DNA of 64,000 bases. Origin: Catajapyx aquilonaris. Lineage: Eukaryota. This document shows positions 38,804-64,000 of this stretch, piece after piece. The notes beneath the pieces were generated by a model. The model saw only the letters and a list, made by a program, of their open reading frames with translations, had not been told where the DNA came from and searched no databases. The DNA lies in the NCBI GenBank assembly GCA_000934665.2, contig JYFJ02001452.1:1-64000 (forward strand). The letters run 5' to 3'. Numbering within the stretch: position 1 is the stretch's first letter; the number at the start of each line of letters is the position of its first letter. A program made the translations under genes and the position numbers.

Positions 38804-39280
38804 TCATGGAACCATGATGTGCGGCGCCGAGAATAAGACCGCGATAGTGGCAATGATGGTGAACAAGGTGAAGATGATGAGGCACATCCTGTCGACCACC
38901 ATGGCGGCGAACTTCCAGTCATTGGTGATCTCCGCGGCTTCGTCCTCCTTGCGCATCTTGTCCGTGATGACCCGGAGCTCCTTGAGGATGAGCGAGAGCT
39001 CCCGGTGGGCGCACACGCAGCTGTGCACTAAGGCTGGGTCCTCGTGGGAGCTTCCCCCGACCCGGATAAAACCCCCGGTGGTGTGCGAAGACTGCAGCGT
39101 GGCCTGCCGGAAGTCGTCGTCAATGTCCAGCACGTTGGCCAGCAGGCTCTTCGACGAGCGCTCCTTCAGCTCCAACTCACGCATCTTGTTGTTCATCGTT
39201 ATAGTCTTCCGGGTTATCTTCTCGCCCGGACGACTCATCCGCAGCAGCCACGGAAGCCACTGCAGGAAGAGAGCCTTGAT
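38804..39280 (-). CDS. nAChRalpha6/nAChRalpha7: nAChR terminal coding exon (477 nt including stop): intracellular loop and TM4
   Basis: Acceptor ttccag|ATCAAG; reads [15 protein letters not shown]...[17 protein letters not shown]...[17 protein letters not shown]...SAPHIMVP then TGA (38806-38804). Confidence 0.96.
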   Translation of the reverse strand: MKALFLQWLPWLLRMSRPGEKITRKTITMNNKMRELELKERSSKSLLANVLDIDDDFRQATLQSSHTTGGFIRVGGSSHEDPALVHSCVCAHRELSLILKELRVITDKMRKEDEAAEITNDWKFAAMVVDRMCLIIFTLFTIIATIAVLFSAPHIMVP

Positions 39281-45200: not shown

Positions 45201-48200
45201 GATCGGACAATGGCCCTGCTTAAATGTATGTTAGTATGTCATTTTTAAGTATATAAGGTGGAATTTTCGTGCCACTGCTAGTCACTGCTAACTTAGCACT
45301 GCCAACACCGGCACTGCTAAGTTAGCAGTAATTAGCAGTAATACGACAATTACACCCATGCACTTTAACTACAACACATCCGGTAATGTTATGGCAAACT
45401 GCACGTAATGCACATTATTTTTGTACTGATGTACCTTATGCTAATCATTTGTAAGAAAGCAATTATTGAGTGCAACCGGGTGAAAGTTAGCGGCTGACAC
45501 ATAATTAGCAGTTACCGTTATAGCCTTGGTCCATTGTATGGCCAGAGGACATGACACCCCCCAAAAAAACCATTAATGTGTCTTTTATCAGGACCGGATC
45601 GAAATGTCACTTTCCATTAAATATGTAATTTTATTTTTCCGCCAGGTCTGTTCCCAAATAATGAGTCGAATTACACGTGGCACGTTATTTCGCATCGCCT
45701 GCCAGCGGCCTAATTGCACGTAGTTATGTAGTAATGCGGCCCGTTTCCGTATAAATATATCCGGGTCGCCGGACATACGCCCTTTTCTTACAGGCGGAGT
45801 TAAAATGCGGAGGGTAGCCCGGATGAATGGCCATCTCCCCAGGTGGCCAGAATTCCTTGTTTTCCGGCGACAAGCAGTACCTCCAAAGTGCATTGTGTCG
45901 TTCTGGGAGCATCCTCCGCGTTTAATTATCCCAACCCGGACCGAAGTAATTACGCATGGAAATGAAAATATTTGTCCTGATGCCGCATTTCCCCCGGAAT
46001 GAAAAGAACTCTCTGCCTCTCGGGCCACTACTGCACACACAGTAGTTACGTATGACTTGAGCCCGTATCGGCCAAAGAACATAATTTGCCCTGAAAAAAT
46101 ATATTGTCCAAACAGTAAACAATAATGCGCACAAATTCATAGAATTATAGAGTCGGACGAAATATATTTTTTGTGACATTTCAATAGCTTGGGCCAGAGA
46201 ACGAAAGGATTTCGAAGGCGTCAAAAGTAATAGCGATTTTTTTTTTCCAGGAGAAAATCTGCAGGTTATCAGCACCGATGGAACTATCAGTCATGGCGGG
46301 CTCGTAATCAATTTAGGCACTTGAGCCTTATTTCGGTTATCAGCTGTGCCACGGGCCTGAGCTAACGTCCCACTTTTGCAACCAACTGCAGCTGATCCCC
46401 TCAATATCGGCTCACAAAATTAATGAGAGAGGACGTTGCACTCGCTCGTTTTCTGTTTTCCCGATCGCTCCTTTTTGCTACGGCGTTTTCTACCCCTCCA
46501 GAAACTAAATCAAGCCGTGTCTGGCAGTGCAAACACGGGCCAGGCACTTAGAAACATCGAGGAGTAACTTTCCAAGTCAAATATAAACAAGGCTGACGGC
46601 CAGAGCATGCATTTTTTTATAAAGTGGAAAGAAGATAGAACGTGTGACTCACCCAAGGTGTCATTTCGTGCGTGTCGGAACTCCTATGATGGTAGTTGAG
46701 GATGAGGATGGTCGACACCACCGACGAGGCCACCATAAACATGATGCAGTTAAAATAAGTACCTGTATCACGAGATGGGAGGGAATAATAAAGAAAGGGA
46801 GGGAAAAAAATTGGGGAATTAATGGTTGGGTACAGCGACATTTGTCATCAAACAAGTCACTTTTTTTTCCATGCTTGTGAACAGAACGTTCAAAAAAAGG
46901 ACAAGTCTACAATCACTGCCTGATCTCAACTGTGAGATGACACCACGCCCGAATAAAGGAACATGGTTGGGGAGATGGCACATTTGATGACGTGCCTGGT
47001 CAGATTGGTCATGCAAACAATTTTTGGTCTGTCAGAGCGGTAGCTTGAAAATAGCCTTGCGTGCGTTTTCTTTTAAAAGTTCCAAGGCAGAAAAAATAAC
47101 TCTACAGAGAACCATACTAGAAGGCAATGCCCAGAGAGTTCTTGAGACTACCGCACCGTTCCAACAGTGATCTGGAAGGATGCAGGATCCACACATGGGC
47201 TCTCAGGCAGGCTATCAGCGAGGATTGAAAAAAAATTGGAGTTGAAAAAAGAGCTCATGACAGACATGGGAGTGGGCAAGGATTTCATGTCTCCACGAAA
47301 AAAATGCCAAATCGGAAGAGAGAAAAAAAAATCGCGAGAGAGCAAATATAAAGACAAGAGGGCTATATAAAAAGGGGTCGCGGACATACGTGTTATATAG
47401 TTACATATGTAGCCGGAACATTTCCGTATAAAATCCTTGCCGCTCACATCCGCACAAGGCAGCTTGAGTGGATTCAAAAAACGAGAAATGCAAAACTGCA
47501 AGACTTAACTCGGCAAGCACGATACTTTTGCACATGTTTCATGCCGGCCAGGAACGTATAACTCGGTGTACATCAAATGCAACACGCTCCAGTTTTCAGT
47601 TCCCAGCTATGTAAATATAATCACCTATCTCTGTCACAACATGCGTTAAATCCATCAAAATGTCAAGACACCATCACCCCCGAAAAAAAGTTCGCTATAT
47701 GCTAAAACATGAAAGAATTATGGAAGAAGAGCACAACCATTTGATACTTGGAGGCAGAGGGGAAGGGGTATCTTTAGTCACGCAAAATCTGATTCCTCCG
47801 TGAATTATGATTCAGAATTGTGGTAAATTCGTGGTATAAAAAGAGCAAAAGAGAATTCTCTTTTTTTCAAAAAACGTGAGAGAAGAATATGCCAATAATA
47901 AAAAACGACGGATCTGTAATCAAAAAAGTACTGGACGGGAGACCTTCATTTCTCCGCACTTGTCTGCAAAAAAGAGCAGTTAAGCTGACAAAAACTACTG
48001 TAAAAATACCCTATTTTCGTCTTATTGGCAAAGGGAAGGCTACAACTCCGCCTTCTCGAATTATTATAAGGTTTAAAAAGAGAGCGCATCGCTGCTGGCA
48101 TGTGGCTGTACTTTTTTATTACTTATCCTAACTATAATATGGAGGTGTGCCATACAGAAATACAATAAAATATTATAATCCTGTAAAAGTCACTGTTGTG

Positions 48201-51200
48201 TAATCCCATGTTAATATAGCATGATTTAAAAACACAACAACAGCGAAAAAAACAACAAAACGTCAAAAGAGGTTGGCGCCCAAAAACACCAACGGGCGAC
48301 GATTATTAGTAGCAAGAATACACATCGTATAACATTATTACATAGTGTGGAAGCAGGCAGAGACTCAAGCTGAGGCAAACTCAAAGCAAATGGCTGTTAC
48401 ATAATTCAGAAAGCAATCTTGATACGCCCAAGGAGCATATGGCCTGCTCCTCGAGTATTATTTCCAACTCATGTCTCTACCGAACAGGTTACTATACTAC
48501 AGATTTTGCTGCCTCCTACAGCACACACTTGAAAAAAGGGGGTAGCCTCTATAATAATAAACAAATATGCAAAAAGCGAGATTTGGGTGGATAGATACAA
48601 GGGGGGACCTAAGAGAGTCGCGACGTCGGGAACTGCGCAAAGCCTCAGCGGTCACAGGAAAATAGTAGAGAGAAATATAGAGGGGGGAATGAGAGGGAGA
48701 AAAAGAGAGTCACTCCTGAAATCAAGGGCAGTCAAAAATGGTATAAATGATGGCCATAGTAAAAAAAAAAACATTCAAAATATTGCTTTCCGGAAATATA
48801 ATGGCTGGGACGAAAAACCACACACACATGACGCACAACCGGCCCATATTTTTCATGTACAAAAAAGTGCAATATCTACCATCCGTCGAGAGCTCATCAA
48901 AAGCATGATCGTGTGGAGAGAGCAAAAGTATATAAAAAAGTACACCAAAAAATACGGGCAGCAGCCAAAAAGGGGAGGTCCAGCTGGCTGAAGACCCGTC
49001 TGACGATGGCGAAAGGAGCTGAGAGAAAACAGACAGAAAAATAGAGAGCAGAGCGGAAAAATAGGGGCGACAACAACACGACACCTGGCAGAAGGCAATA
49101 CCTAGAACGGGCAGCGCGTCAGACACCTGGGGGAGCGTCTCTGCTACTAGGTTATGGAACACGGTCAGAGATAGAAGGATGGTAACTCCTGAAATAAAGA
49201 AAGACATCTGTATCATTAAAGCTTCTCCTCAGGATAAGAAAGGCGTCCCAGACAGACAGACGGAGAGGTAGAGAGAGTGAGAGAAAAAGGAAACATCGAG
49301 AAGTGGTGGTGGGGGGACAGTATCTACTAATGGTCAGCCTCAAGCACGTCAAGTCAAGTCCTATTCTCCCCAATCCAAAATACGTCGAGTCGAGCATCTT
49401 GACGTGTTCAGGGCCGGACCGAAATGACTAGAAGGAAATACCAAGCGAGTGGAAGAGATGTACTACGATGCACAGTAGAGACGGCTCTCAACATATTCTA
49501 CACGAGAAATCTACAGGGGAGTGTGAGAAAAGTTCCTGGTACAGAGTGTTATGAAAAATAAATGAGAAAAAACAAATGGAAAGAGAAAAAGTACGAACAT
49601 GCATGATGGTAAAAATCAGCAATGAAACCGTGGTGGTTAGGAGATGTATCGTTATTATTTCTCGTTAATTATTTCTGTAATTCAGGTGCCCTTTTGTCGC
49701 TCTCGTGGACATTATCAAAAAGACAGTGCGTAGAGATATGAAGATTGCAAATACTTGCGCAATTTGTCGGGTCAGTCAAACCTATGTCGTCAACCCGCGT
49801 GAATGGGGTCAAGTGTGTGGGTACAGTACTTGTGGTGGGTATGATTATACCCGCCATCGCCTGTCTGCAACATATCAAAACACTGTTATATCAGTCGGCA
49901 GGCCGTCCATCTGAAAGAGGTTAGATTTTGTCGCCTTTTTTTTTGTTTGTTTGTTTGTTGTTCGGGAATCCTTCAGGTTCCGGTCACCCCCTGTAAGCAA
50001 ACCAAGTGATATTCATGCAAGGCACACCTCCATCTGTGTTGGGGAACCGCGTGCATGCTTCCACCCCTTCTCTCTCCCAAGTATCCAGAAGCCATGTGAG
50101 AGATGGCATGCGGCTGGCAATCAGGCTTCAGACCACATCATTCCAGGTTTGTGGGTAGTATATACACAGTCACAAAAACAACCAAATAAATATATGTACA
50201 TAAACAGCAGACGGGAACCCGGTTGCCTGCAGTGACCCAGTCCGTTGCGGCTGGAAGGTACCCTGGTCCTCTCCTTCTCGAAACTGAGTCACCTGTGTTC
50301 TCCCGGGGGTCAGTGGTTGGAAGGAGAGGGCCGGGTGCCCTCAGGTCATGAGGCCAACAAAAGTTCGACAGCCGCAACCGGACGGGGTCACCATGCACAG
50401 CCCTCATCCGACTCATGGCTTCTCCCGGGGGGGAGACATACGTCACATTCGGTCATAATTATATCTCTAGCGAGTATATACAGTTAATGATAATAATAAT
50501 ATACGGAAAATCATATCTATAGCTGAGAGTAAGCTGGTTGCAGAAGGACGGAAAGAAAACGTGTCATGACTGCCTTTGTACACTACCTATCAAGGGCACA
50601 GCTTCGGAAGTGGTAGGCATGGACTCTGCCACCAGATTCAGGAAGACAGTCAAAGAGAGCAGAATAGTGATTTCTGTAACGGAAAAAGAGGATGAAGGAG
50701 AGGTCCAAAGCATGTTCTCAATTCAAGGACAGCGTCCTTGCTTCCATAGTGCATCTCGAATGTCATGGAAAATATTACATAATTTCTTTTTTTTCTCTTG
50801 TTACGTGTTTTGAAGGATTGCATTGGGATGAATAAACTGCAGCTTCGAAGCAGGAAGCAGGATATGGTCGCTGGAATATACGTATACTTTTTCCTCTTAC
50901 ACCTCGGAAAAATACCGTCTGCATAAGGACGACCGTCAATTACAAAAATTATGACAACACATGTTATAATCATAATAATACAAATGAAATGAACATAACG
51001 CTCTCGTGGGAATGAAAGTATATACAATGAAAGGTAAACGATAAGTAGTATGCCTTTGAGTCGAGATTGAAATTTCACGGTTGTTGTTCTCACGTACTCA
51101 CACACTCATGCTTCCGAAATTCTTTAAAATTTAAAACAATTAAAAAAAACATGTAGACGTAAGCGCAACTTCTCGTCGGAGAAGAGGGAACGAAAGTCCT

Positions 51201-52730
51201 GAAAAACAGAAACAGCAAAAAAGAGTGACGAACGGACACATGCAAGGCACACGTTCAAAAGTGAAATGTCATAGGAAATGATAAATCATGCGAACGCTTC
51301 TGTCTGTCTCGCCGAGTGTGGAAGAACCACACGTCGCCATGCATAACTAGAAAAATTGATTCTCCCTCGTGCGCTGACGAGTGGTGAATAGAAGGGGGGG
51401 GGTGCAGCGGTGCGGAATGGGGAACGTGAAAAGTCGTATAGTGCTACTTAAACTAATATGTTCTCCATCCATGTAAACGCCACACGGGGGGGTTTGTAAC
51501 ACACCGCGATGATTGGTATCACTGCCACTTTGGACCTACTATCACATGAAAAACAAACCATTCCCATCACAAATGAGAGAGAGATAGAGGAAAAATAATT
51601 TTTAAACAAATAGGGGAGGTTGACACAGGTGGGCCACCTGGCTGGACTAAAAATGGGGGTGTTTTACTCGCTTCCCTTCTAGGTACGACAAAGGTAAATA
51701 TACTGTAACATTACTACTCTACTTAGTTGCCACCCCCTCTACTTGTCTAGTACGTAACCCATGTATTGACACTGCCCTGTTTGTGTGGTGGGTCACAAAC
51801 ATGCAGATTCTGCGGTCAGTGACACTTGCTTTTTTCGAGTGCTCTAGTGAGAGTGAGAAAAAACTTTCAAGCTGTGCTGTGAGTTACGGAAAGCATTTCA
51901 ACATTTCCGTGTGGACAAGAAAAAGAAATATGGTAACAGTAAAAAAGTTGAACCTACTTCAACACGACACAGTGAACACGGGACAGTACAAATGGTGCTC
52001 TGTATTTCTTTTGTTCTCCCCTCTGCTGTCCAAGTAACAAACCACCTGCTTCGAGTTGCGTTCGGTGTTTACCTATGAGAGGACGTTCGGAAGTAGGAGG
52101 CATACTCTCAGCCACCATATTGAGGAAAAACGTCAGAGACAGCAGCACAGTTACATCTACGGACAGAAAGACAAAGAGGAATATTGGCTGTAGCCATTGA
52201 ACGAGGAACTGTAGGAGTCTCTCGGACCCCCTGAGGACCTCCTAAACGAGAAAGAGATGGATGAGTGATCAGGCGGAACGGGACGGTGACAAGCAACACA
52301 ACAAACTAAACAAATCAGAGAAACAAGAGGAGAGAAAAACAAACAGTCAGAGTAAATCGGGATATCCAAAAAATGACTTTATTTTTTTAGTCATTTCTCA
52401 AAAAATCAAAGAGGACACCACGATGCGTTCATTCCACCGTTCTCGACTTACATGCAACGAAACTTTCCTGAAAGTAAAGGTCAGCTAGGAGAAAAAAACA
52501 GAGATAGAGAGAGGAAGTTGCAGTAAAAAGAGACAAGTCCGCATTCACCACTGCAAAAGCGGAAGAAATTGGCCCGTTCTCATATTTTGGGGGGAGTTTC
52601 GGGAAACCAAAACATACATATTGTTTCTTCACTCACTTTTTTTTTCCTCTCAAAAAATTTTCTATGGAAAAATTATGGGGAGAAAAAGTATTGCATGCTG
52701 CTCATGTCGGCACTGAGGTTCCAATCAGGC

Positions 52731-52771
<41 letters not shown>

Positions 52772-55700
52772 GCACGGTAACGACTCGGGGAAGGAGGATA
52801 AGGACTACGAGAGTCCAACTCTTGATGGACCCGTAGTCTCTCATCGGCTATATGCATATAATATATTTTGGTTGTCATGCAATCATGTCCCATCTCATTC
52901 CCCTCTGTGCCTCTAGAGGTAGCAAATGGCCGCTCTAGCATCCTCTACAAGGTGTACAGTACCTAATAAAGGCACAGCGTCCGATGTGGCTGGCATGGTC
53001 TCAGCGACCATGTTTAGGAATACGGTAAGGGAAAGGAGAACTGTAACACCTGCAAAACAAAAGGACATTCGAACTGTGATGCAAAGGGTGAGAAAGCGAT
53101 GCATTCAGAAAAGAAATTGGCGTCTCCAAAAAATGTGATGTCCTCTATTCTCAAAAAGGTCATCTCTAAGGCGCATTCCAAGGGAGCATAATAAACTCAT
53201 TGTGGAGGTGGCATAAAACAAAGGGTCACCTGGGTCGCACCCAGTTTCCAGTTGTCTCTCGACGGCACCATAAAACTTTGCATATATTATAATATAAGGC
53301 TACGCTTAAGTAAATTACCATGTCAAAAATAGTTGACCTACATTAGTGAGCATGACCCACGACCTACAATACAAACATGAGAGGGTGGGGAGGAAGAAAG
53401 AAAAGTGGGCAAAAAAGTCGTCACTCAATCCTTCTCCAAAGACATCGACTTATAGAAAGACACTTAACTATGACGAGTCATCTCCATGACATTCGAGTGG
53501 AAAACAAGCGAATCCCAAATCTAAAGCAAGTCAGAAAACAAATCAAACTCTCAGCAGGGGGAAGAGAGAGTCACTGGGAAGCAGCTTGGCTGAGAAAACG
53601 CGTCATGTTTTGTAAACTCCCGCTCCTTCAAAGGTTAAATGCTCGGAAATAACGAGACTCAAGCATCGGAGTCTCTGAAGAGAGGAAAAATACTCTCCAT
53701 CTCTCTCTCTCTTAGTAAAGTGGCATCCTTGGGCCCTGCGCGTCTTCTTTTCGTGCTCGAGCTGGCACTGACTTGGAGTTGATAGGCAAGGCAATTCATC
53801 TTTTCCACGTTTCAAAGAGAGGGCTCAATCGATCATCGGCAACTCCTTACTGAATGACCTGGATCAATGTGCATAATGACTCCTCAGAAAAGTTTACTTC
53901 AGCCGCTACTTTACCGACACAAACATTTCTTCAATGCTCCCGGAGTTACATATAAGAAAAAGCTGCGGTTTGGACTACCATTTTTAAGTTTTAAAAAATG
54001 TGCCTCAGCTTTAACGTACTTTATGGGAACAAGTGTGTATTTCCTTCATGTTGTTTTGAAACTTGCTTGGAATGATCATGCATTGATATACAGTTGGATT
54101 ATGAACGAAACACAAACATCGTATGGACAACAATTTTCATAAGCAGCTTTGGCACATTTTTTTTTTTTTTTTTTTTGCAAATCATCCCAGTGACTTGACT
54201 CTTCCCAGTAGCGTACACAAAACTAGAGCATGCCACATTTTGACTGCACTACGCCAAACATACTGCAGTCAAAATTTTATGTCACAAGAAAGCAATCCAA
54301 CACTCTTAACCACGATGAATACCAAGATGAAAAAGATATAAACATATACATGAGGAAAAAAAAATATAATCATATAGTGTTAATGAAGCCTCATGATTAT
54401 TCTGAGGGGGAAAAAAGGTGCCTCATGAAAACTCTTCCTGAAAGGGGGTCAATTTAAAGCTGTGATGTATTCAAATGCTCTTACCTGTATATATTATTTT
54501 TTTGTTTTAAAAGAAAACAAATGCATAACATTGTGGATAAGGGGGTTATGTAACACATGTAATATTTTTTTGCCTGCATTCAAATTTGATCGGGGGGGAT
54601 ATGTAAACGTGGGGAGGGTATTTTGTGGGTGTCACGAGGAAGCGTGCCTTGTCATACTCGCCAGTAACATTTTTTTTGCATTAAAGCGTCACTGCTCGGG
54701 TTTAAACACTTTGGATGGCTCCGACCCAAATTCCACATCGAATGACCTTTTTTACCATCATGTACTGCGGATGGTTCATTTTTTTCCTCTGTAAAATTAT
54801 CCACGTGATTTTGGTCATTGGCAGTACATCGCATGTTTGGAAAATTGAAAACGGGATGAATTTTGTCCTTCGCGCAGCGCCGCTTTAAACCACTCATTAA
54901 ACGCCTCTACATCATTAAGTCGTACTTACACACTAGGTTAAATTAGCAATTTGGTTCGGTCAACAAATGGCAGACATAATTAATCCAGGTCCGATCAGCG
55001 CTACACGTGCGGTATGATGAAGCCGAAACGTCTGAATATTTTACGTATCTCCCAGTGAACCACCACGGTTAGTACTGACAACGTTACCAGTCAAAAACTT
55101 CATTTTTGTTTTTACCGCTCAGTCTCATCTGGTCCAAAAGTGAGCAAATTTTGGCATAGTACAAACACGATCGAATTGGCTGCAGTGGACATGCGGTAGT
55201 AGAGAAAGAGCTTGTATTATAATCAGGGCGTGCAGAGCACAGGAGCTACTAGAGTGCACAGAACTTCACGAAGAACGTAAGATAGACAGAAGAGGGGAGA
55301 AGTTGGCTGCCGCTCATTCTGCAGGCCGACGACCATCTCATTTTTTTAAAAAAACAATTAATTCTGGCAACAATAAGATGGTCGATGGCACCCTCATTTG
55401 TAAGAACCCACTGAATGGCTGCGCAAGATTTCCCAGACCTGAAGTGGAAATAATTTTTATTTGAAACAGATCTTAAATGATTCCCAGCATGAAATGGCAA
55501 CAAACTTTCATCTCCATACTCGGGCAGCTTCTGCGCTCCCCGATTAATTTGAAAATATCGACCCTTCACACAAACCCAAGTCACGCGACACAGTTTCATT
55601 TAACTCGAATGCCACCGAATATCGGTTTTCTCCCGGACCTACCGCATTCGTAAAAAGCAGGGGATGGGGCGGGGAACGCCTGCCCTGTAAAAAAAAAAAA

Positions 55701-58700
55701 ATCCTCATTCCAAACGCTTACATCTCGCCAAGGTAAACCTTTATCCCGCAAAAAAAGAACCGGTACCATCCCCTAAAAATTCATGCTATCGGCCCCCTCC
55801 AAAAAATAGGTCGGATCAATAGGTCCCTGCCACAATAATGATCCTCACCCTGCACCCGGAATGGGGCATCCGGAAATGGGGCACAGCCATACTTATCCAG
55901 GAGCAGAATGAGCGCCCTTGCCCGTATATAGACAGAACCAGGATATGTGAATATGCAACTGGCAGGGGCACAGCCAACAACTATACCTATCGTCAGCTTC
56001 TCGCCGCACTCGTGAGGAAGGGTGAACCCTAGTAGTGTCATAGAGGCGATCATGACGCAGGGGATTATCAGATTCACCATGTAAAAAAGGGTTCGCCGAC
56101 GGATATGGATGGTGTAAGTTACGTCAATGTATGGCTCGGGGCAGCACACGTAGAAGATTACGTTCTTTTTCACCGGCACAGCTGGAATATGCCACAATGA
56201 TTTTTTTTTTCGGGGGGGGCGGGGGGCGGTGGGTGGTGGGTGGTCGTGAAAAGAAATGGAAAAGAAATACCATGGGGCATGTAAATATCAATGCACAGAC
56301 AAACAAGAAGACCAACAAATATATGGATGAATATGATATTTAAAAAGACATGGATATGTAACAAACCAAACAAGCCATAGACAGGTAACTACTGGCAAGC
56401 GAATGGCCATACCTAGGGAAAGTTTTTCTCCCGAGTCCGGTGGCAAGGTAAAACCAAGAACAGCCATGGAGGCGATGAGAACACATGGAACGATTAAGTT
56501 GAAAAAGTAGTACAAAGTCCGCCGACGGATAATTATTGTGAAAGTAATGTCTACATAAGGTTCAGGGCAGCATTGGTAGAATATTACATTCCTTTTGCCA
56601 GGCACACCTGTAATGGAGAAAGAGGTGGAAGAAAAAAAAATCGGCGTAAATATAAAGTCGCCGGCAGCCAAGATGAGCTGAAAAAAGCAGACAAAATTTT
56701 TCCAAAACAAAACAGAAACAGAAAAAAAATATTTGTTATTTTGTGGCTCTGCTCTCCAAATATGTATCAAACGTCGCGAGGAAAACGTTGCTCTTTTAAA
56801 ATGTCCACAATTATTTCAAAAAAGAAAATTCGGCGAAAAATTCCAGGAAATTTGAAGAGCGGAAACGGTTCTAAAAGGAAAAATGGACCACCAACAGAGT
56901 GATAGAGGATTTCTTTTTAAAAATAGACGCATTTTGTTCATAATATACTTTCAGAATAATTAGTCACCATGTCTTCATATTAATGAATGGGAAATTAAGC
57001 AATTTAATTAATAACTGTATGTAATTGCCCTCATTACAATTATGAGCAAAATGCCTGCGACTGGTGACCGATTGCCGTGAAAGAAAACCATTTTAGCTCG
57101 TAAAGACCCCAAATAGTTCCCTTTGACTTGTCACCAGTACTTTTGAGAGAAGAAGGCAGTGGACAGGACAAACAGGATCGGAGTGTGCCCTTAGGAAAAC
57201 TTAATAGACAGTGAGGGGATGAAATGGATGGAAACTGTGGGGGGAAGAAGGGTAAATGTTTCAAACGTCGGACGGACCTGACTCAGGCTCTCTGAACTAA
57301 AGTGAACTCTTCTGAATGAGTCCATGCAGCCTCCGAGAGTATTGATTCGAGGGGAGGGAATAGGGTGGGTGGGTGGTAGAGTGTGGATGGGGATGGTGTG
57401 GGTGGGGAAGAGAGTTGAGCAAACTGTGGGGGGGAGGCTGCTGCTTTTCCAACACACTAAAACTACCTTTCCTTGCCATCTAGCGAGGCGGATTCAACTC
57501 TGCCTCTGCTATGTAACAAACATCCGCGCCCTCAAACTTTGAAACTACGTAACTCCTCTCTGAACAAAGCGGGAGAATTAGTTTGGCCACCGACAAAACT
57601 TTTTTTTATAGTTTAAAAAAATTAGTTTAAACTACAGATCGGCTACGCTCTGCTGCGCTTTTGAAAAACTGTCATGCATGAACTAAAAATTTGCACATGG
57701 AGTAGAAAGAGATTGTGAATAATTGAAGTGGGTTCGAATATTTTTGCACCTGCAGGACCAGTTTCCATCAGTTCATAAAAATTTGCAAATGCATATAAAC
57801 TGACATGAATAGTAAAAGGCCGTATCTGGACTGTGAAATAATGCTCAATTATACTATTGAGTGTTCCTTTTACTCTACTTAATGCGAATCTTTTACTAAC
57901 CAGTGCAGAAATGATCTGCAAGTACGTATATTTAAGTTGTGTACAAACTGCAACCTGCATATATACATTTTAGGTAATGAAATTCAAACCTGTCGATATG
58001 TACGATCACATCAAGCATACAGTAACTACTAAAATATATGGCACACCCTGCTATTACCAGCTTGATAATTCAGCGCATTTGCACAATATTATTATTTTTT
58101 GTCCTGATGGAATATCACACCTTTTTGAGTGATGTTGCTAACTTCTTGCCTTACGAGAGAGAGAGAGGGGTAGTAATGTAATCTTCACTGACGTAAATTG
58201 CTCCTTTGGTTATTTCGGAGCGGAAAACTTTTCTCTCTGCAGTGAGTGTCAGTTTGAGAAGAAATGCGATTACTTTCCAAGTCACCTTGAACGAAGTGAC
58301 CGTCTGATGGTTGAAGCTATCGGCAGGCCCCATCAAATGCAATTTCTGGACCTGGGCACAAATATATCCGAACTTCTCCAGAAACATATCTCCAAGATCT
58401 GAGACACTGAATTAGATATTGCCTCCAGTGAAAAAACGAGGTTCGAGGAGAGATCGACGACCTCTCCTCTTGCAATTTAAAATTTAAACTGAAATGACGC
58501 CAAAACTCATGCATGACCTGGGAGGACTTTTGTGTTTATTAAATTTTGCGAACTGTTCCTTCACTTGGAAGAAAAATAGGGCGCGAGCCAATGGTGTTTG
58601 CGCCTGGACTTTCTCCTCGAGGAGAGTCCCCGTCTTACCGATGAGGTCCCATTCTCCATTTGTGATGAAACTGCTTATGTCGCCTCCGTCCTCGCTCTGC

Positions 58701-61700
58701 AGCTGCAGGTCCAGCTGCAAATTCAAAGCGGGGGCCTCGTTATTACAAACCTGCTCTAATTACACATCCCACTCAGTCGCCTGCAGTGCCTGAAACATTT
58801 TCCAAAATCCGCTTCTGCGCTGGTCATGCGTCAAAAGAAAGGACATGGGAACGTTTTAGGCGACTGATGTGGAATATTTTGGATGGGAGGAACACACACC
58901 GTGTATCCAGACAACCATGATTAAGTGGTATTCTTTCTCTTCCCACCCTCCCCATCCCAATCCCCCTCGTCTCTTCACATATTCAGGAAATACGACTTCA
59001 ACATACAGTATAAACTGAAAGAGCTGTCTTTCGAATAAAAGCCTAAGTATATGCAGTCCTCATGCATTCTTTCATGTACCTTCAAAATATACACACACAT
59101 GCACGTTCATTGTTAATGGGAAAATAATACGCTGCAATCAAGAGAAAAATGTCTAACTATTGCATGTCGTATGCAAATACGTCCAAAATATTCTTTCAAA
59201 CATCATTTCACACCATTGATGTGACAGTTTACTGGAGAAAAACACCACGTACTCTGTACTGTAGCATAAACCTCACTTGATCATCAAATTGTGCACTATA
59301 TTAACTAACTTGTTAAATGTACAGTTCCAATACATACTTGTTACGTATGTCAAAATCTTACCAGCAGAGATAACGTTTATCTGTAGTGGTTTTTTTAAAA
59401 AAGAAAAAAAGTCAAAACCTCTGCGCCAAAATTTCGGCGAAATATGCACATTGGATGTCTTCCTATTCCAATATCTCGACTTTTTTGGCCCCCACCCCCC
59501 AAAATGCCGCTGCAAAAAATAAATCTTAAAAATACGAAAATATATGACGTTATATCTTTTCATAGAACGCAGTACAAACGCCTCCTGATCCGGCGAGATT
59601 ATCCTTTTCCATTTGTATCAGTTGAGACACTGAAGCAACTTGTCCAACACTATAATTATAACCTTCCTCTATATGTAGGTCTGCGTGTAATTTTCTCCTT
59701 GCAAAAACATGTCAGACGCGCAATTTCCTTAAGCACACAAAACTCGCACACTGCCGTTGTCGCAGTTTAAAGGGGCAAAGAAACCGTCAACTCAAGCGTT
59801 GCTTCAATGTTCGTTCAAGTCTGACACGTCGACAAAGTGAAGGCCCAAAAGCAAACATTTTCCGCGCCCCCAAACGTCGAACTTCTGTTATATACTGTAT
59901 ATAAAAATATATAGATATATATTCCTGTTGGTTTTCTCTCTCTCGGTTTTTTTTTTGTGATACACACTAACACTACTCTACCAGTAAGAAATTACATGTT
60001 CTACCTCGAAAGTGCTTATACCTGGAAGCCATCATAAGTCCAGCTACCAAACTTCATGTCACAGCGCTGATCGTCAAAGGGGAACCACGTAATGTCTATC
60101 TTGCATGTGCTCTTGAAGATGCCCGGCGGAACGTACAAGCAGCTACCGTTATTTCTGACCACAACATTTGTGGGATAGGTCCCGTCGAAACCCTCATCGG
60201 CACTTGCAGGAAAGGTGGGAAACAAGGGGTAAGTATAACGGTTTACTTTTTTTTTCTTTTTTGCACGGTTAGTAAACAGAACAACACAGACTGCCCTATA
60301 AATGCAGGGGTGGAATATTAGGTGAGAAAAGAAACAATTTACGTTCCACTATAAGAGAATAAGTGCACTACTCAACCGGAGGGGGGATAAAGATTAAAAA
60401 TGTCGACTTTTTTTAAAAGAACAGGACAGAAGAAAAAAAATGGCCAGTTTTATGTCAAGAAAAATCAACCCAGCCCCAGAAAAACTCAAAAGGTTGCACA
60501 CCGAAGAAGAAAAATAGAAGAAAAAACGAGAGAGAACAGCTATCAAAAAATATAGAGATTTAAAAAAAATAGAGTTCAGAGGAAAATTGTGGACAAGAAA
60601 AAAAAAAACACCGAAGCAGCCAAAACCACGTATTGGGCTACACGATACGCAGTTCATGGGACTATCACCAGGCGACCATCACCCCACATGGAAACACAGG
60701 ATTTGGTGAGTCCGCTGGGGAGTCACCTCCTGCGCCTCAACCGCTGTGTTTCCAGCAAGAGCGATTCTAACTTGGAAACATGGTGGCCCAACAACAACGG
60801 CATCTGGCCATCGTACATTGTCACCGGGCAGGTCACAAAAAGATCAGAGCCAAAAGTGAGTTTCCCCTTTACGCATGATATGATATTGTATAAGATATGT
60901 GTACTGAACGAACTGCTGCACCAGACAGCTCGAGCTTCAGTTTTACCCCCGACTAGTTGGTTTGTTCGCCATGGGAGTTCGCTATTTCCAACCCCATGAC
61001 TCGCAAACCCTTCAGCTAATATTAGATATCACCTACTAAGGACAATAGTTTTAAAAGCAATATTTCTGCAAAATTATGTCTAAAAGTCTTGGGATAGGAA
61101 GAGAGTGTGAGCATTTCCTTTTTCTTTCTTTCTCTATGATTTATGGTGCCGCTCACAACGTCTGACTGGACAGTACTTGTACTGGGTGTCACTCCAGCTC
61201 TGTCCCAGCACAAATCAAACCACTTCCTCCACCTAACACTACTTACATTTGTCCTGACCAGTCCAGTAATTAATTGGTTCGGCGACATCAGACGTTACCT
61301 TTCTTTCGACCATCGGTTGCATATCCTTTCGTAACACAACTTCAGTTGCATCGGTCTCGAAATGAAACTGCAGGTGTGGAAAACGATACAAACGAAACAA
61401 AAAAGGCGCAGTCGTTCACTCCAGCAAATGTGACACACTCAAAAAGGGTTTACTTTTACTCGCATTAAGCGGAGTAACAAATACTCTACAAAGCAATCAG
61501 GAAACATTCGCTTGTAATTTGTACAGTGGGCGTCCCCAGTTAAATTCGAGTGTCTTTTGCACATGTGTCTGGACAATTAACAAATCTTTGTACTCGCATA
61601 TGTGGCAAAAAAAAACCTACTTGCGATACACCCTGTACTACTGGGCGCCAAACATGCATATCTTGTTTTGGTATCAGAAAAAAATCCTATTCACCCTCCG

Positions 61701-62944
61701 CCAGTTCTCTCACACACTTTTTTTTCGCAGGGACGTCCAGAATTTGACGGTATCTGTACTTCGAGCGGAGATAAAACCCGGGTTCTCTGGCGCCCACAAA
61801 CAAAAGGAGTCCGAAGGCCATTGTGTGGATTCACCGTTTGAATTAATCGCCATTGAACTGACACACACATAAAAGTAGTCTGGCGTTTTGACTTGGCCGT
61901 CGCATGTCTGTAAACTTTTTCCGAAAAACAATGGGGTTGTCCAGCGAGTGCATAATATGCGCCTGGGAAATAGAATAATCAACAAAATAGTTTATAGGAA
62001 GACTACAACAAGTTGGTCGAAAGGAAAGAAACAGCACATCGGCCAGAGACATGTTCACACGTTCTCACCCATCGCACCTCCTCGCGTCCTCTTTCGCATA
62101 CCATCTAAAACAAAGCATTACAACTAGACTAAGAGTAGGGAGGCTTACCTTTCCCATCACATATAACAAGACAGTTATATACCGAAGGCCATCAATATGT
62201 GGCCGAAATAGGAGGTGGCACACACGCAAGACAGGAGCGGCCAGGGGCAAAACTGAAGTCTGCCGAGTTGGAAGCCATAAGGCTACATACCAACAGTCCT
62301 TTGGCTACAACTTTTGGGCTCCCAATAAGCCTCGTCCCCTTCCACGGTGTCCCTTGTTGCTGGCTTGCCAACTGAACAACTGGCCACACTAAACTTTTCT
62401 TTTTTTTTGTAAGTAACTACACAGCAGGGGAAGGAAAATCATTGCTGAAACACAAAGTGTAACTGTTTTCTCTCGAATATTTAAAAAAATGGTATCTGTA
62501 TAAAAAAAAAGAAATTGAGACGAACATAGTCGTAAAATTTATAGGGCAGAGTACAGGCTAAATAAATTTTAAGTATACTTTTCAAATCAAGTGAGCTACA
62601 ATTTTGTCAGTTGAATTACGTTCAATGCATATTTATCAGGGGAGAGAAATGGTGCGGGTTAATTGTTGGACACTCCGCACTATATCTCCATCCTGTATTT
62701 ACGTGTAACTGCGATGTCATTAGGCAGCCGTTCACAAAAATTCTGTTACGTCTTGCAGCTTCCTATTGTCATCGCGGATGCAACTAAGATCACGTGATGA
62801 GAGACAACGGCACACGCATGCTTTTTGGCCATACCTGTTGTACATGAGCACATCGGGTTTCCAGATGCGATGCGGCGGTATCCTAAGATCCTTCACCCCA
62901 CCATATTCAGACACGTTCCACCGGAGATTCACGTCGTTCCATTC
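38804..62944 (-). CDS. nAChRalpha6/nAChRalpha7: Nicotinic acetylcholine receptor alpha subunit, alpha7 class (insect alpha5/6/7 group); spliced, 5'-partial (exon 4 to terminal exon)
   Basis: Exons join in frame at GT-AG boundaries: 62944-62835, 60202-60022, 58714-58639, [56607-56413 or 56181-55987], [53049-52963, 52156-52073, 50673-50587 or 49188-49102], 46762-46653, 39280-38804. The product has [10 protein letters not shown] (loop A), the Cys-loop [20 protein letters not shown] (loop B), vicinal YxCC (alpha subunit), the GEK cation filter and TM1-TM4. The alpha6 versus alpha7 orthology is ambiguous. Confidence 0.97.
44871..44912. repeat. 9-bp tandem repeat (CTCCCTTCC), about 4.7 copies
   Basis: Direct reading; explains the REGREG and PSLPSL low-complexity ORFs. 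Confidence 0.9.
45257..45356. repeat. Palindromic (foldback) element with ~47-bp imperfect arms, MITE-like, in the last intron
   Basis: Left arm GGTGGAATTTTCGTGCCACTGCTAGTCACTGCTAACTTAGCACTGCC versus right-arm reverse complement GGTGTAATTGTCGTATTACTGCTAATTACTGCTAACTTAGCAGTGCC, with a ~6-nt spacer. Confidence 0.8.
46653..46762 (-). CDS. nAChRalpha6/nAChRalpha7: nAChR exon 9 (110 nt): (G)[36 protein letters not shown]
   Basis: Acceptor tacag|GTACT, donor TGG|gtgagt, phase 1 to 0; TM3. Confidence 0.96.
48609..48715 (-). pseudogene. Decayed fifth copy of exon 8 (pseudo-exon or poison exon, 107 nt)
   Basis: Acceptor atttcag|GAGTGACT mirrors that of 8-4. It starts (G)VTLFFSLS and ends AVPDVATLL(G)|gt in another frame, with GCT GAG GCT TTG (AEAL) between. 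It has a net +20 nt, frameshifts, an in-frame TGA and a weak gtcccc donor. Confidence 0.6.
49102..49188 (-). CDS. nAChRalpha6/nAChRalpha7: nAChR alternative exon 8-4 (87 nt): (G)[28 protein letters not shown](G)
   Basis: Acceptor atttcag|GAGTT, donor CTAG|gtattg, phase 1 to 1. Confidence 0.86.
50228..50397. repeat. Nested GC-rich inverted repeat (stem-loop) between exons 8-3 and 8-4
   Basis: Outer stem GTGACCCAGTCCGTTGCGGCTG (50232-50253) pairs with CAGCCGCAACCGGACGGGGTCAC (50369-50391); inner stem 50257-50277 pairs with 50320-50339. Confidence 0.8.
50587..50673 (-). CDS. nAChRalpha6/nAChRalpha7: nAChR alternative exon 8-3 (87 nt): (E)[28 protein letters not shown](G)
   Basis: Acceptor ttacag|AAATC, donor ATAG|gtagtg, phase 1 to 1. 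Absent from the ORF track in this frame, so translated by hand. Confidence 0.88.
52073..52156 (-). CDS. nAChRalpha6/nAChRalpha7: nAChR alternative exon 8-2 (84 nt): (D)[27 protein letters not shown](G)
   Basis: Pyrimidine tract then ccgtag|ATGTA, donor ATAG|gtaaac, phase 1 to 1; one codon shorter than the others, frame intact. Confidence 0.82.
52731..52771. repeat. (ATCA)10 microsatellite between exons 8-1 and 8-2
   Basis: Perfect tetranucleotide run. Confidence 0.95.
52963..53049 (-). CDS. nAChRalpha6/nAChRalpha7: nAChR alternative exon 8-1 (87 nt): (G)[28 protein letters not shown](G)
   Basis: Acceptor ttgcag|GTGTT, donor TTAG|gtactg, phase 1 to 1; TM2 and M2-M3 loop. Confidence 0.93.
55987..56181 (-). 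CDS. nAChRalpha6/nAChRalpha7: nAChR alternative exon 7B (195 nt): (A)[64 protein letters not shown]
   Basis: Acceptor ttccag|CTGTG, donor ATAG|gtatag; same length and phase as 7A, no stops or indels, YxCC and GEK retained. Confidence 0.88.
56413..56607 (-). CDS. nAChRalpha6/nAChRalpha7: nAChR exon 7A (195 nt): (G)[64 protein letters not shown]
   Basis: Acceptor tacag|GTGTG, donor CTAG|gtatgg, phase 1 to 1; loop C with vicinal Cys, TM1, canonical LPPDSGEK. Confidence 0.95.
58639..58714 (-). CDS. nAChRalpha6/nAChRalpha7: nAChR exon 6 (76 nt): [25 protein letters not shown]
   Basis: Acceptor ttgcag|CTGGAC, donor ATCG|gtaaga, phase 0 to 1; loop F with NGEW motif. Confidence 0.95.
60022..60202 (-). 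CDS. nAChRalpha6/nAChRalpha7: nAChR exon 5 (181 nt): (S)[60 protein letters not shown]
   Basis: Acceptor tgcaag|TGCC (uncommon AAG), donor CAG|gtataa; contains the Cys-loop and loop B; phase matches exons 4 and 6. Confidence 0.96.
62835..62944 (-). CDS. nAChRalpha6/nAChRalpha7: nAChR exon 4 (110 nt): [36 protein letters not shown](S)
   Basis: Acceptor ccag|GAATGG, donor AACAG|gtatgg, phase 0 to 2; loop A motif. Confidence 0.96.
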
Positions 62945-64000
62945 CTGGTCATAGATTCAGACAGTTAGTTAACAAATTCTGATACCCCGAGCACTCCTAG
63001 GACGCAATTGCCTCACTTCATCTTTCCATTTTTCAAAAAAATTATTAGCTCAAAGTTTGCTCCGTATTTATATTATTCCAGAGGCAAAGATTCCTGGAGC
63101 GCTGAACAACAACGACTACGAAAAGACATCCAGGATGCAAGAGTAATTATAAAATAACCGAGTGATAGATGTAACAAGTTAATTGTAAAAACCGCGGCCA
63201 GACAGAAACGCACAAGGCGACAGAAAATAGCGACATCCATTTTCTCTGTGATTTGTGTGTTTGCAACCGCTTTTTGGTTATTATATCTCCCCCGAAGATT
63301 GATGTGCAGTATACTTCAGTGCAACTGATACGATCCGTACCTTTCCGCATCTATAATGGAAACACACAACCCACAGAGGGCAAAAAACATAATAATCCCA
63401 CAGACTGTAAAACAAAAAGGCCAGAAAAAAATATAGTAGCAAAATTTTTTCCATATACCGATCATTTTTTATATCACAAAAGTCACCCAGTTATAAAAAC
63501 TAAATCTATCTAAAACACGTCAGGTCTACAGCTACACAAATCGTTTAGATGTGTTTTCAGTTTGTGAAATGTTTAAAAAGCACATGTATACAATGCAGTC
63601 TATATGCTAGTTAACATTTACCTCAGGCAATTGCTTTCAGCAATTGCTTGAATTACCCATTTACAAACAAAAACATCTTAAAACAATCAACTCCGTTTGT
63701 AAAAGGTAATTTTGCTAGATGCCTACACAAAACCCCAAAATGCTTTTTGGTTGAAAAAACTCAAAAGTTAATGCAGTACTGCTTCCCTCACATTGTACCG
63801 CAAAACCAAAAAACAACAACGCGATAACTCAAAAATTTAAAAATAAACGAATGACCGGTTTTCGTCAGGCCCAAAAACTGATGAAAGCCACGGTAGAGAA
63901 AGAAAGCAAACTGCAACAGTCGCCTCCTCAGAACTGATCAGAAACCTAAATCAGAAACCGATACAGGCCTGTTTATGTAACAATGCAATCCCTGACATTT

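Follow-up and report, generated by a model that had tools for sequence, protein, structure and literature searches.

Can a single nicotinic receptor gene exchange its ligand-binding loop together with its first membrane helix by alternative splicing? The question is raised by a 64,000-nt stretch of DNA from Catajapyx aquilonaris (positions 1 to 64,000 of contig JYFJ02001452.1, assembly GCA_000934665.2; hereafter the window), which carries on its minus strand a nicotinic acetylcholine receptor (nAChR) gene with two homologous versions of one 195-nt exon in tandem, here called 7A and 7B. We propose that these are probably ancient, tandemly duplicated, mutually exclusive exons of the arthropod alpha7-type nAChR gene, with 7A as the default version and 7B as a minor one. 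An initial annotation, made from the nucleotide sequence alone, had already suggested that the two are homologous alternatives of one gene; this is supported by the homology of the exons, by isoforms annotated in other species, and by transcripts of a close relative in which 7A is used and 7B is skipped.

Two versions of exon 7

Both exons follow an AG acceptor and precede a GT donor; on the minus strand, with slashes at the exon borders, they read ttacag/GTGTGCCTGG...CCCTAG/gtatgg for 7A and ttccag/CTGTGCCGG...ACGATAG/gtatag for 7B. Each is in phase 1/1, starting with two bases of a codon and ending with one, and each is open in the frame that continues from exon 6. The initial description of two open 195-nt phase-1/1 exons with canonical splice sites agrees with the sequence and translations in every detail; the translations also confirm its YxCCPEPY and GEK motifs in both exons, and RRRTL occurs in both as well.

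The two exons are identical at 128 of 195 nucleotides and at 45 of 64 residues, leaving 19 positions that differ. Broken down by codon position, the identities are 49 (first), 56 (second) and 21 (third) of 64. First and second positions are thus conserved, whereas third positions match no better than in unrelated sequence; the duplication is accordingly old, and coding constraint acts on both copies. Chance, recent duplication and assembly artefact are ruled out by this pattern, and judging from the sequence the pair is two coding sequences held by selection after an old duplication. Exon 7A is 94% identical to mayfly alpha7 exon 7.

In human CHRNA7, exon 7 measures 195 nt and the next two exons 87 and 110 nt; to our knowledge exon 7 is single copy in vertebrates. 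Both window exons have this length too, and they can be aligned gaplessly with residues 178-241 of human alpha7. Unlike CHRNA7, the window gene has two copies; against human alpha7, 7A scores 90 bits and 7B 72 bits, which makes 7A the closer.

A nicotinic receptor gene of the alpha7 type

We mapped the gene by tblastn with termite, locust and lobster alpha7-type proteins, and refined the exon borders from the sequence and from RNA joints (Table 1); its earlier exons fall outside the window. Exon 5 matches Pfam Neur_chan_LBD (E 1e-20) and the last coding exon matches Neur_chan_memb (E 4.5e-16). The parts of 7A (E 3e-6, 28.0 bits) and 7B (E 9e-6, 26.6 bits) that encode the first transmembrane helix (TM1) score just below the curated Neur_chan_memb cut-off of 28.1 bits, as expected for 28-residue pieces. 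The Cys-loop, with two Cys 13 residues apart, lies in exon 5, and the vicinal Cys pair appears as FYQCC in 7A and FYVCC in 7B. With domains, Cys-loop, YxCC and GEK all present, the gene is on these sequence features a Cys-loop ligand-gated channel, specifically a nicotinic alpha subunit.

The initial annotation had compared the gene with alpha6, a comparison that does not hold. In a tree of 59 exon-7 peptides, 7A falls in a clade (98/97) with the Apis alpha7, Drosophila alpha5/alpha7, mayfly, beetle and mosquito alpha7 exons, and the alpha6 exons form a separate clade (99/88); alpha6 identity was accordingly rejected. The flanking exons are also nearer to Drosophila alpha5 (Dalpha5) than to planthopper alpha6, with identities of 92 versus 83% for exon 4, 95 versus 90% for exon 5, 97 versus 68% for exon 8a and 81 versus 74% for exon 9. 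The last exon does not discriminate between the alpha7 type and alpha6; its best matches are decapod alpha7-like proteins (72-74%), mayfly (73%) and springtail (70%). No annotated genome is closely related to that of the organism. We read the gene as alpha7-type, that is, as a member of the group of Dalpha5/Dalpha7 and insect alpha7. Passages of the 2025 potato beetle paper likewise group Drosophila alpha5 with non-dipteran alpha7.

What exchanging the exon would change

The stretch of human alpha7 to which both exons align comprises the loop C hairpin with YxCC, strand beta10, the RRR of pre-M1, TM1, and the loop between TM1 and TM2 (the M1-M2 loop). The loop C hairpin holds three of the differences between 7A and 7B, one of them at the residue that separates Y from CC (Q in 7A, V in 7B). 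Several more lie in TM1, including position 48, which aligns to chain position 225 and which we take to be part of the alpha7 transmembrane modulator site. Immediately before GEK, 7A has PDS and 7B has HEC, retaining a negative charge (D to E); GEK itself is identical in the two and aligns to GEK at human alpha7 chain positions 236-238. The Glu of GEK is the residue of selectivity and Ca permeability, and GEK before TM2 marks a cation channel. Since GEK is identical and the charge kept, the exon should tune binding, gating, conductance or assembly and should not switch ion selectivity. The initial annotation had splicing swap both ligand loop and selectivity filter: loop C residues do differ, but a filter swap is overstated.

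Under our proposal, each mRNA would join exon 6 to either 7A or 7B, and that in turn to one of the four versions of exon 8. The resulting subunits would keep the normal four-helix topology and differ in a 65-residue module that runs from the loop C hairpin through beta10, pre-M1 and TM1 to the three residues ahead of GEK, which is unchanged. Exon 7A would be the default, and 7B, with its acceptor behind a run of ten A (A10) and its first base a C, a minor and regulated choice. The exchange should tune agonist binding through the Y-x-CC residue and the flank of loop C. It should likewise influence TM1 on its lipid- and subunit-facing side and the pore at its cytoplasmic mouth (PDS to HEC), a change that might bear on gating, desensitisation, conductance, or sites for assembly partners or modulators; cation selectivity as such would be unchanged. 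Against human alpha3, alpha6 and alpha4, 7B scores 65.8, 63.2 and 62.3 bits, and 7A scores 60.0, 55.6 and 55.4 bits; the 7B scores would fit a TM1 and pore mouth of a more heteromeric type, to be taken as a lead rather than a finding.

Isoforms and transcripts

RefSeq isoforms with 7B in place of 7A were found in six species: Thrips palmi (X1, where X3 has 7A), Scylla paramamosain (X7), Macrobrachium nipponense (X14, X28, X42), Panulirus ornatus (X15), Pollicipes pollicipes (X6) and Amphibalanus amphitrite (X7). Macrobrachium X28 and X24 are both 776 residues long, and all 21 of their differences fall within residues 470-533; in Pollicipes, X6 and X4 have 499 residues each, with all 19 differences confined to residues 208-270. 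As aligned, these two pairs are clean exon-7 substitutions.

RNA evidence came from one run (X1) of a close relative, as assembled contigs rather than reads, aligned to positions 44001-64000 of the window; its 56 records comprise eight at ≥99% identity, 11 at 95-99% and 37 at 90-95%. Joints with GT..AG ends on the minus strand connect exons 4 to 5, 6 to 7A, 7A to 8b, 7A to 8c, 8b to 9 and 8c to 9, all at the predicted sites. The joint recorded at 56605/58637 (cut +2) corresponds to 58639>56607, exon 6 to 7A. Exon 5 has a joint at 60202 and a loose end at 60022. The joints from 7A to 8b and 8c mean that 7A transcripts skip 7B and that two of the four exon-8 versions are used. The initial annotation had presumed that exclusion is enforced; we consider mutual exclusivity probable.

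Distribution, selection and descent

Searched with 7B, 246 candidates yielded 241 hits, and 120 of these hits were listed. Two tandem exon-7 segments were present in 23 of these 120, and further searches added more. At least 23 named species with 7B occur among the matches listed, 14 hexapods and nine crustaceans. The hexapods are two termites, two cockroaches, a locust, a katydid, three Timema species, a louse, three hemipterans (a planthopper, a kissing bug and an aphid) and a thrips; the crustaceans are four decapods, an amphipod, an isopod, Daphnia galeata and two barnacles. Metagenome contigs provided 34 loci, 13 of them with both 7A and 7B in genomic DNA; the others are one with 7B at its very start, one split copy, and 19 from other animals with a single exon of another type. 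In the window and the 12 metagenome loci examined for splice sites, AG and GT flank both exons at the same places, and the spacer between 7A and 7B is 152-153, 231 or 708-886 nt long.

The window 7B is 66-81% identical to the 7B of six other species, with 33 columns invariant over the seven sequences; these include F32, TLL in TM1, and H-E-C-G-E-K, where a single F replaces H. We counted the proportions of nonsynonymous (pN) and synonymous (pS) differences between the window and six other loci by the Nei-Gojobori method. For 7B, pN was 0.12-0.18 and pS 0.74-0.97; for 7A, pN was 0.05-0.09 and pS 0.62-1.09. Among 7B orthologues overall, pN was 0.10-0.21 versus a pS of 0.64-0.97, and in every distant pair pN was far below pS for both copies. 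In the two pairs with finite synonymous divergence (dS), omega for 7B was 0.05 and 0.12. Neutral decay of 7B is rejected by this excess of pS over pN, and the neutral divergence across relatives that the initial annotation had named as telling against a functional 7B is absent. Exon 7B is kept under strong purifying selection across relatives.

In the exon-7 tree, crustacean and hexapod 7A fall in the one clade with the insect alpha7 exons (98/97). A hexapod 7B clade (93/88) contains the window 7B, whose PHECGEK motif also places it with hexapods; malacostracan and barnacle 7B form another clade (82/93) within a polytomy. The clustering of hexapod with crustacean 7A, and the copy-specific clades, imply that the duplication predates the hexapod-crustacean split; a single origin of 7B may fit the tree. 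No holometabolan model with 7B was among the listed matches. A springtail model likewise has 7A only, although springtail-like metagenome loci do contain 7B, so absence from models proves nothing.

More speculatively, the pancrustacean ancestor may have had both the exon pair and the TM2 exon cluster, giving at least 2 x 4 forms, with a heteromeric-like 7B that would confer distinct assembly partners or gating; exclusivity would be imposed by the branch point here, and the system would have gone unnoticed because the model insects have 7A only. We hold this full scenario only tentatively and on the doubtful side.

Exclusion at splicing

Joining 7A to 7B keeps the reading frame, and nonsense-mediated decay therefore cannot clean up such products; exclusion must occur at splicing. 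The spacer of the window gene has features that could provide it. It has two AG only, both within its first 24 nt, and is pyrimidine-rich with several UCUU words, a pattern seen where distant branch points serve to repress exons. The AG-free stretch that ends at the 7B acceptor is 205 nt long (56390 to 56182) and starts about 23 nt past the 7A donor. Of the 3507 gaps between AGs on the window's minus strand (mean 16, median 9) it is the longest; at the gene's eight other acceptors the AG-free zone measures 19-97 nt. Before 7B comes a run of C, then the A10 run, then only 19 further bases. Long zones free of AG are a mark of distant branch points, and steric exclusion calls for a branch point within about 50-60 nt of the upstream donor. 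This arrangement might reflect a distant branch point and steric exclusion at 7B in the window: with the putative 7B branch point so near the 7A donor, splicing of 7A to 7B would be prevented. We regard steric exclusion as the likeliest mechanism in the window, though at somewhat short of an even chance.

We also considered pairing of docking sites and selector sequences in RNA, as in Dscam, and found it unsupported: six loci share no conserved complementary intronic elements, and the repeats are at chance level.

Weighing the explanations

A number of observations weigh against our proposal. The RefSeq isoforms are pipeline models, and the same pipeline also yields 7A and 7B in series and two versions of exon 8 in series. 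Of the junctions that the initial annotation had pointed to, 58639>56607 and those from 56413 to 8b and 8c were found, but neither 58639>56181 nor any from 55987 to exon 8 was, there being no joint at 56181 or 55987 among the 15 of 21 RNA joints listed for the relative's contigs. One 403-nt contig of the RNA run does overlap 7B (55986-56188). It ends 1 nt beyond the 7B donor, a weak hint of a graph branch made by spliced reads. However, it extends 7 nt into the upstream intron, and its depth of 18 is near that of intronic contigs (16-25) rather than joint-bearing ones (60-142), although contig depth cannot rank parts of a gene; given overhang and depth, it may be pre-mRNA or DNA and not spliced mRNA. 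Of the 120 listed 7B matches, the Thrips palmi model alone has spliced flanks at a 7B-only exon. Ten further 7B-only fragments continue into intron-like sequence and so appear to be genomic. The spliced 7B-only matches listed include no assembled Logan contig, while spliced 7A contigs do occur. As to mechanism, AG-free zones in five other species are 18-94 nt with spacers of 152-886 nt. A blastn comparison of the intron regions of six loci returned only exon-8 copies and chance-level words, with no conserved intronic block, and a search of 5.7 kb for inverted repeats gave 32 pairs, none convincing and about chance level by our own estimate. What is shown is thus the anatomy, the conservation and selection, the isoforms annotated in other species and the 7A transcripts that skip 7B; that 7B is used in this organism, and to what effect, is inferred.

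The transcript results could mean that 7B is a relic here, a functional alternative elsewhere in arthropods that is no longer spliced in this species and has yet to decay. The lack of a 7B junction among the listed joints would then be expected, as would the poor-looking acceptor, and the end branch of the window 7B is ten times that of 7A (0.22 versus 0.022). The exon also has odd residues, with V for the G of a PG common in most other 7B and KLTI for KLTL. Yet 7B is open over 65 codons with both splice sites and all 33 invariant columns intact, and the branches of other 7B exons are as long (0.15-0.37). Comparison of the window with the relative sampled in run X1, moreover, gives 5 differences in 203 positions and no gaps for 7B, against 40 in 779 and 30 gaps for the five listed intronic pieces of one contig. 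We consider a relic unlikely. Far less probable still is that 7A and 7B are included in series, as a real product with an extra helix and inverted TM2-TM4. The initial annotation had rightly noted that joint inclusion of the 195-nt exons stays in frame and would add a fifth membrane helix; the 231-nt spacer is spliceable in principle, and models with 7A and 7B in series come from RefSeq and other annotations of about 20 hemimetabolous insect and crustacean species. Several of these models (P0005, P0006, P0008 and P0016, with three termite or katydid models among such) also string two TM2 exons in series, however, which marks them as prediction artefacts over mutually exclusive exons. The two listed joints that leave 7A lead to 8b and 8c, with no 56413>56181 joint among the 15 of 21 listed, in contigs that drop rare variants. 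A fifth helix would misplace the pore helix and the large loop across the membrane, contrary to the established topology of the family, and clean isoform pairs of equal length with 7B for 7A exist.

If the exons are alternative, as we propose, exclusion need not be steric; it could arise from competition of a weak acceptor with a strong one under tissue-specific splicing factors, or from intronic RNA pairing as in Dscam and 14-3-3 xi. The long AG-free zone is peculiar to the window, so steric exclusion cannot be the general mechanism, and the ordinary zones of other species mean that this must differ. Inverted repeats able to loop out 7B do exist, one around 7B (56201-56221 with 55677-55697) that is homopolymer-rich and one of 14 nt between 7A (56527-56540) and the intron after 7B (55831-55844) that is about the chance expectation for 5.7 kb. 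Such repeats are short or of low complexity and about as many are expected by chance on our own estimate, no intronic block is conserved between the six loci, and the extreme AG-free zone of the window would be left unexplained. We give non-steric exclusion close to an even chance.

Relation to known systems

Grauso 2002 is said to have described the alternatives of alpha6 at exon 3 and exon 8. Published excerpts give the mutually exclusive exons of insect nAChR alpha6 as 3a/3b and 8a/8b/8c (Jin 2007, PMC1919356; review PMC8505678), and those known across insect nAChRs as Dalpha4 exon 4 and alpha6 exons 3 and 8. As in alpha6, the window gene has a tandem exon duplication in a gene of the alpha5-7 group, with copies of equal length and phase that are old, conserved and, here probably, used one per transcript, and it too has a cluster of TM2 exons, here of four copies. 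Unlike alpha6, which swaps loop D or TM2, it is an alpha7-type paralogue and would swap loop C, TM1 and the M1-M2 loop. Table 1 of the 2021 review (PMC8505678), as excerpted, gives cassette exons as the only alternative splicing of Dalpha5 and none as reported for Dalpha7, and lists no exon-8 cluster for Drosophila alpha7-type genes, such clusters being described for alpha6. Excerpts of PMC2064938 and PMC12309072 give the alternatives of Dalpha4 exon 4/4', RDL exons 3 and 6, and GluCl exon 3. Like these, the pair consists of alternative homologous exons that would alter ligand-binding loops of insect Cys-loop receptors; theirs are wholly extracellular, however, and none joins a membrane helix with loop C.

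In alpha-tropomyosin exons 2/3 and the alpha-actinin NM/SM exons, exclusion comes from a distant branch point; in alpha-tropomyosin it lies near the upstream donor and forbids joining both exons. Smith and Nadal-Ginard 1989 and Gooding et al. 2006 reportedly deal with such a distant branch point and long AG exclusion zone. The window gene resembles these systems in the long pyrimidine-rich AG-free zone before 7B that nearly reaches the 7A donor, and in being an in-frame pair that cannot rely on nonsense-mediated decay. It differs from them in that the 7B branch point is putative and the AG-free zone is not common to the other species examined.

The term 'exon 7' is absent from the available excerpts of Jin et al. 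2007, the Tribolium superfamily paper and the 2025 potato beetle paper. Excerpts of the cockroach alpha7 cloning paper mention no isoform, exon or splicing, with 'variant' only in the title of a cited GABA receptor paper. Full-text literature searches found no description of the exon-7 pair, their coverage leaving out the Jones et al. 2021 paper on the cockroach ligand-gated ion channel superfamily, which may bear on it. The novelty implied in the initial annotation stands as to publications but not as to databases, where RefSeq crustacean and thrips isoforms already encode the pair; as far as searched, it is present in public annotation and seemingly undescribed in papers.

Significance

The alpha7-type subunits form fast, calcium-permeable, bungarotoxin-sensitive receptors of arthropod nervous systems. 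If our proposal is true, the cloned "alpha7" cDNAs of cockroach, locust, planthopper, thrips, aphid, shrimp and barnacle each represent one of two pharmacological forms, and the pair may have been overlooked because the model insects of the nomenclature (fly, bee, beetle, moth) show 7A only in their models. In crustaceans and in insects outside the Holometabola, the pair would provide receptor diversity of great age that has been overlooked, on a principle that is itself familiar. As a natural domain swap kept for about half a billion years, it could inform the roles of loop C and TM1 in gating and assembly. It would also explain a recurrent annotation error, the roughly 20 public models in series that predict impossible subunits of five or six helices.

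Gene map and other observations

Table 1. Mapped exons of the alpha7-type receptor gene in the window, in order of transcription
Feature	Position	Strand	Description
Exon 4	62835..62944	-	Ligand-binding domain, 110 nt; tblastn; RNA joint 60202/62835, GT..AG ends
Exon 5	60022..60202	-	Contains Cys-loop; tblastn, 95-97% to insect alpha7-type proteins
Exon 6	58639..58714	-	76 nt; ttgcag/CTGGAC...CTCATCG/gtaaga; ends EWDLI + G (phase 1)
Exon 7A	56413..56607	-	Loop C, beta10, pre-M1, TM1, M1-M2 loop to GEKLSL; strong pyrimidine tract before acceptor
Spacer intron 7A-7B	56182..56412	-	231 nt, pyrimidine-rich; C-run then A10 near 7B acceptor
Exon 7B	55987..56181	-	Alternative version of the same module; PHECGEKLT in M1-M2 loop
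Exon 8a (TM2)	52963..53049	-	87 nt; 97% identical to Drosophila alpha5/alpha7 TM2 exon
Exon 8b (TM2 variant)	52073..52156	-	84 nt; tblastn; RNA joints 52156/56413, 46759/52070 (cut +3)
Exon 8c (TM2 variant)	50587..50673	-	87 nt; tblastn; RNA joints 50673/56413, 46759/50584 (cut +3)
Exon 8d (TM2 variant)	49102..49188	-	87 nt; tblastn; 88% identical to lobster exon of its type
Exon 9 (TM3)	46653..46762	-	110 nt; tblastn; RNA joints from 8b and 8c
Last coding exon	38807..39280	-	TM3-TM4 loop, TM4, stop; tblastn

A Pfam scan of ten long open reading frames elsewhere in the window matched no family. Exon 8, which encodes TM2 and the TM2-TM3 linker, is present in four tandem versions on the minus strand (49102-53049). 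Many annotated or assembled alpha6 and alpha7-type isoforms join exon 7 directly to exon 9, reading GEKLSL or GEKLTL and then TYFNCIMF; they skip every exon-8 copy in frame and thus lack TM2 (P0061, P0226-P0229, P0279, and further P0310, P0311, P0313 and P0323-P0327).

Concerning the spacer, read-through proteins of some assembled contigs imply 7A-7B distances of 21 nt (P0003, P0004) and 42 nt (P0027), which, if genomic, are too short for intron removal; they were not used as evidence. The 21-nt case could be partly spliced RNA from a donor inside the spacer, and a cockroach model seems to use a donor 18 nt into it.

In the springtail-like loci L001, L011 and L012, pS was 0.28-0.35 in 7A versus 0.64-0.89 in 7B; either silent sites of 7A are constrained or these 7B copies are not strict orthologues. 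Finally, the homologous exon is also tandemly duplicated in a non-arthropod-like lineage (ENA contigs P0025 and P0026; loci L015-L034). Its first copy is divergent and has lost GEK (GENVNC), and this may be an independent duplication; in loci L031-L034 the exon is interrupted by an extra intron.

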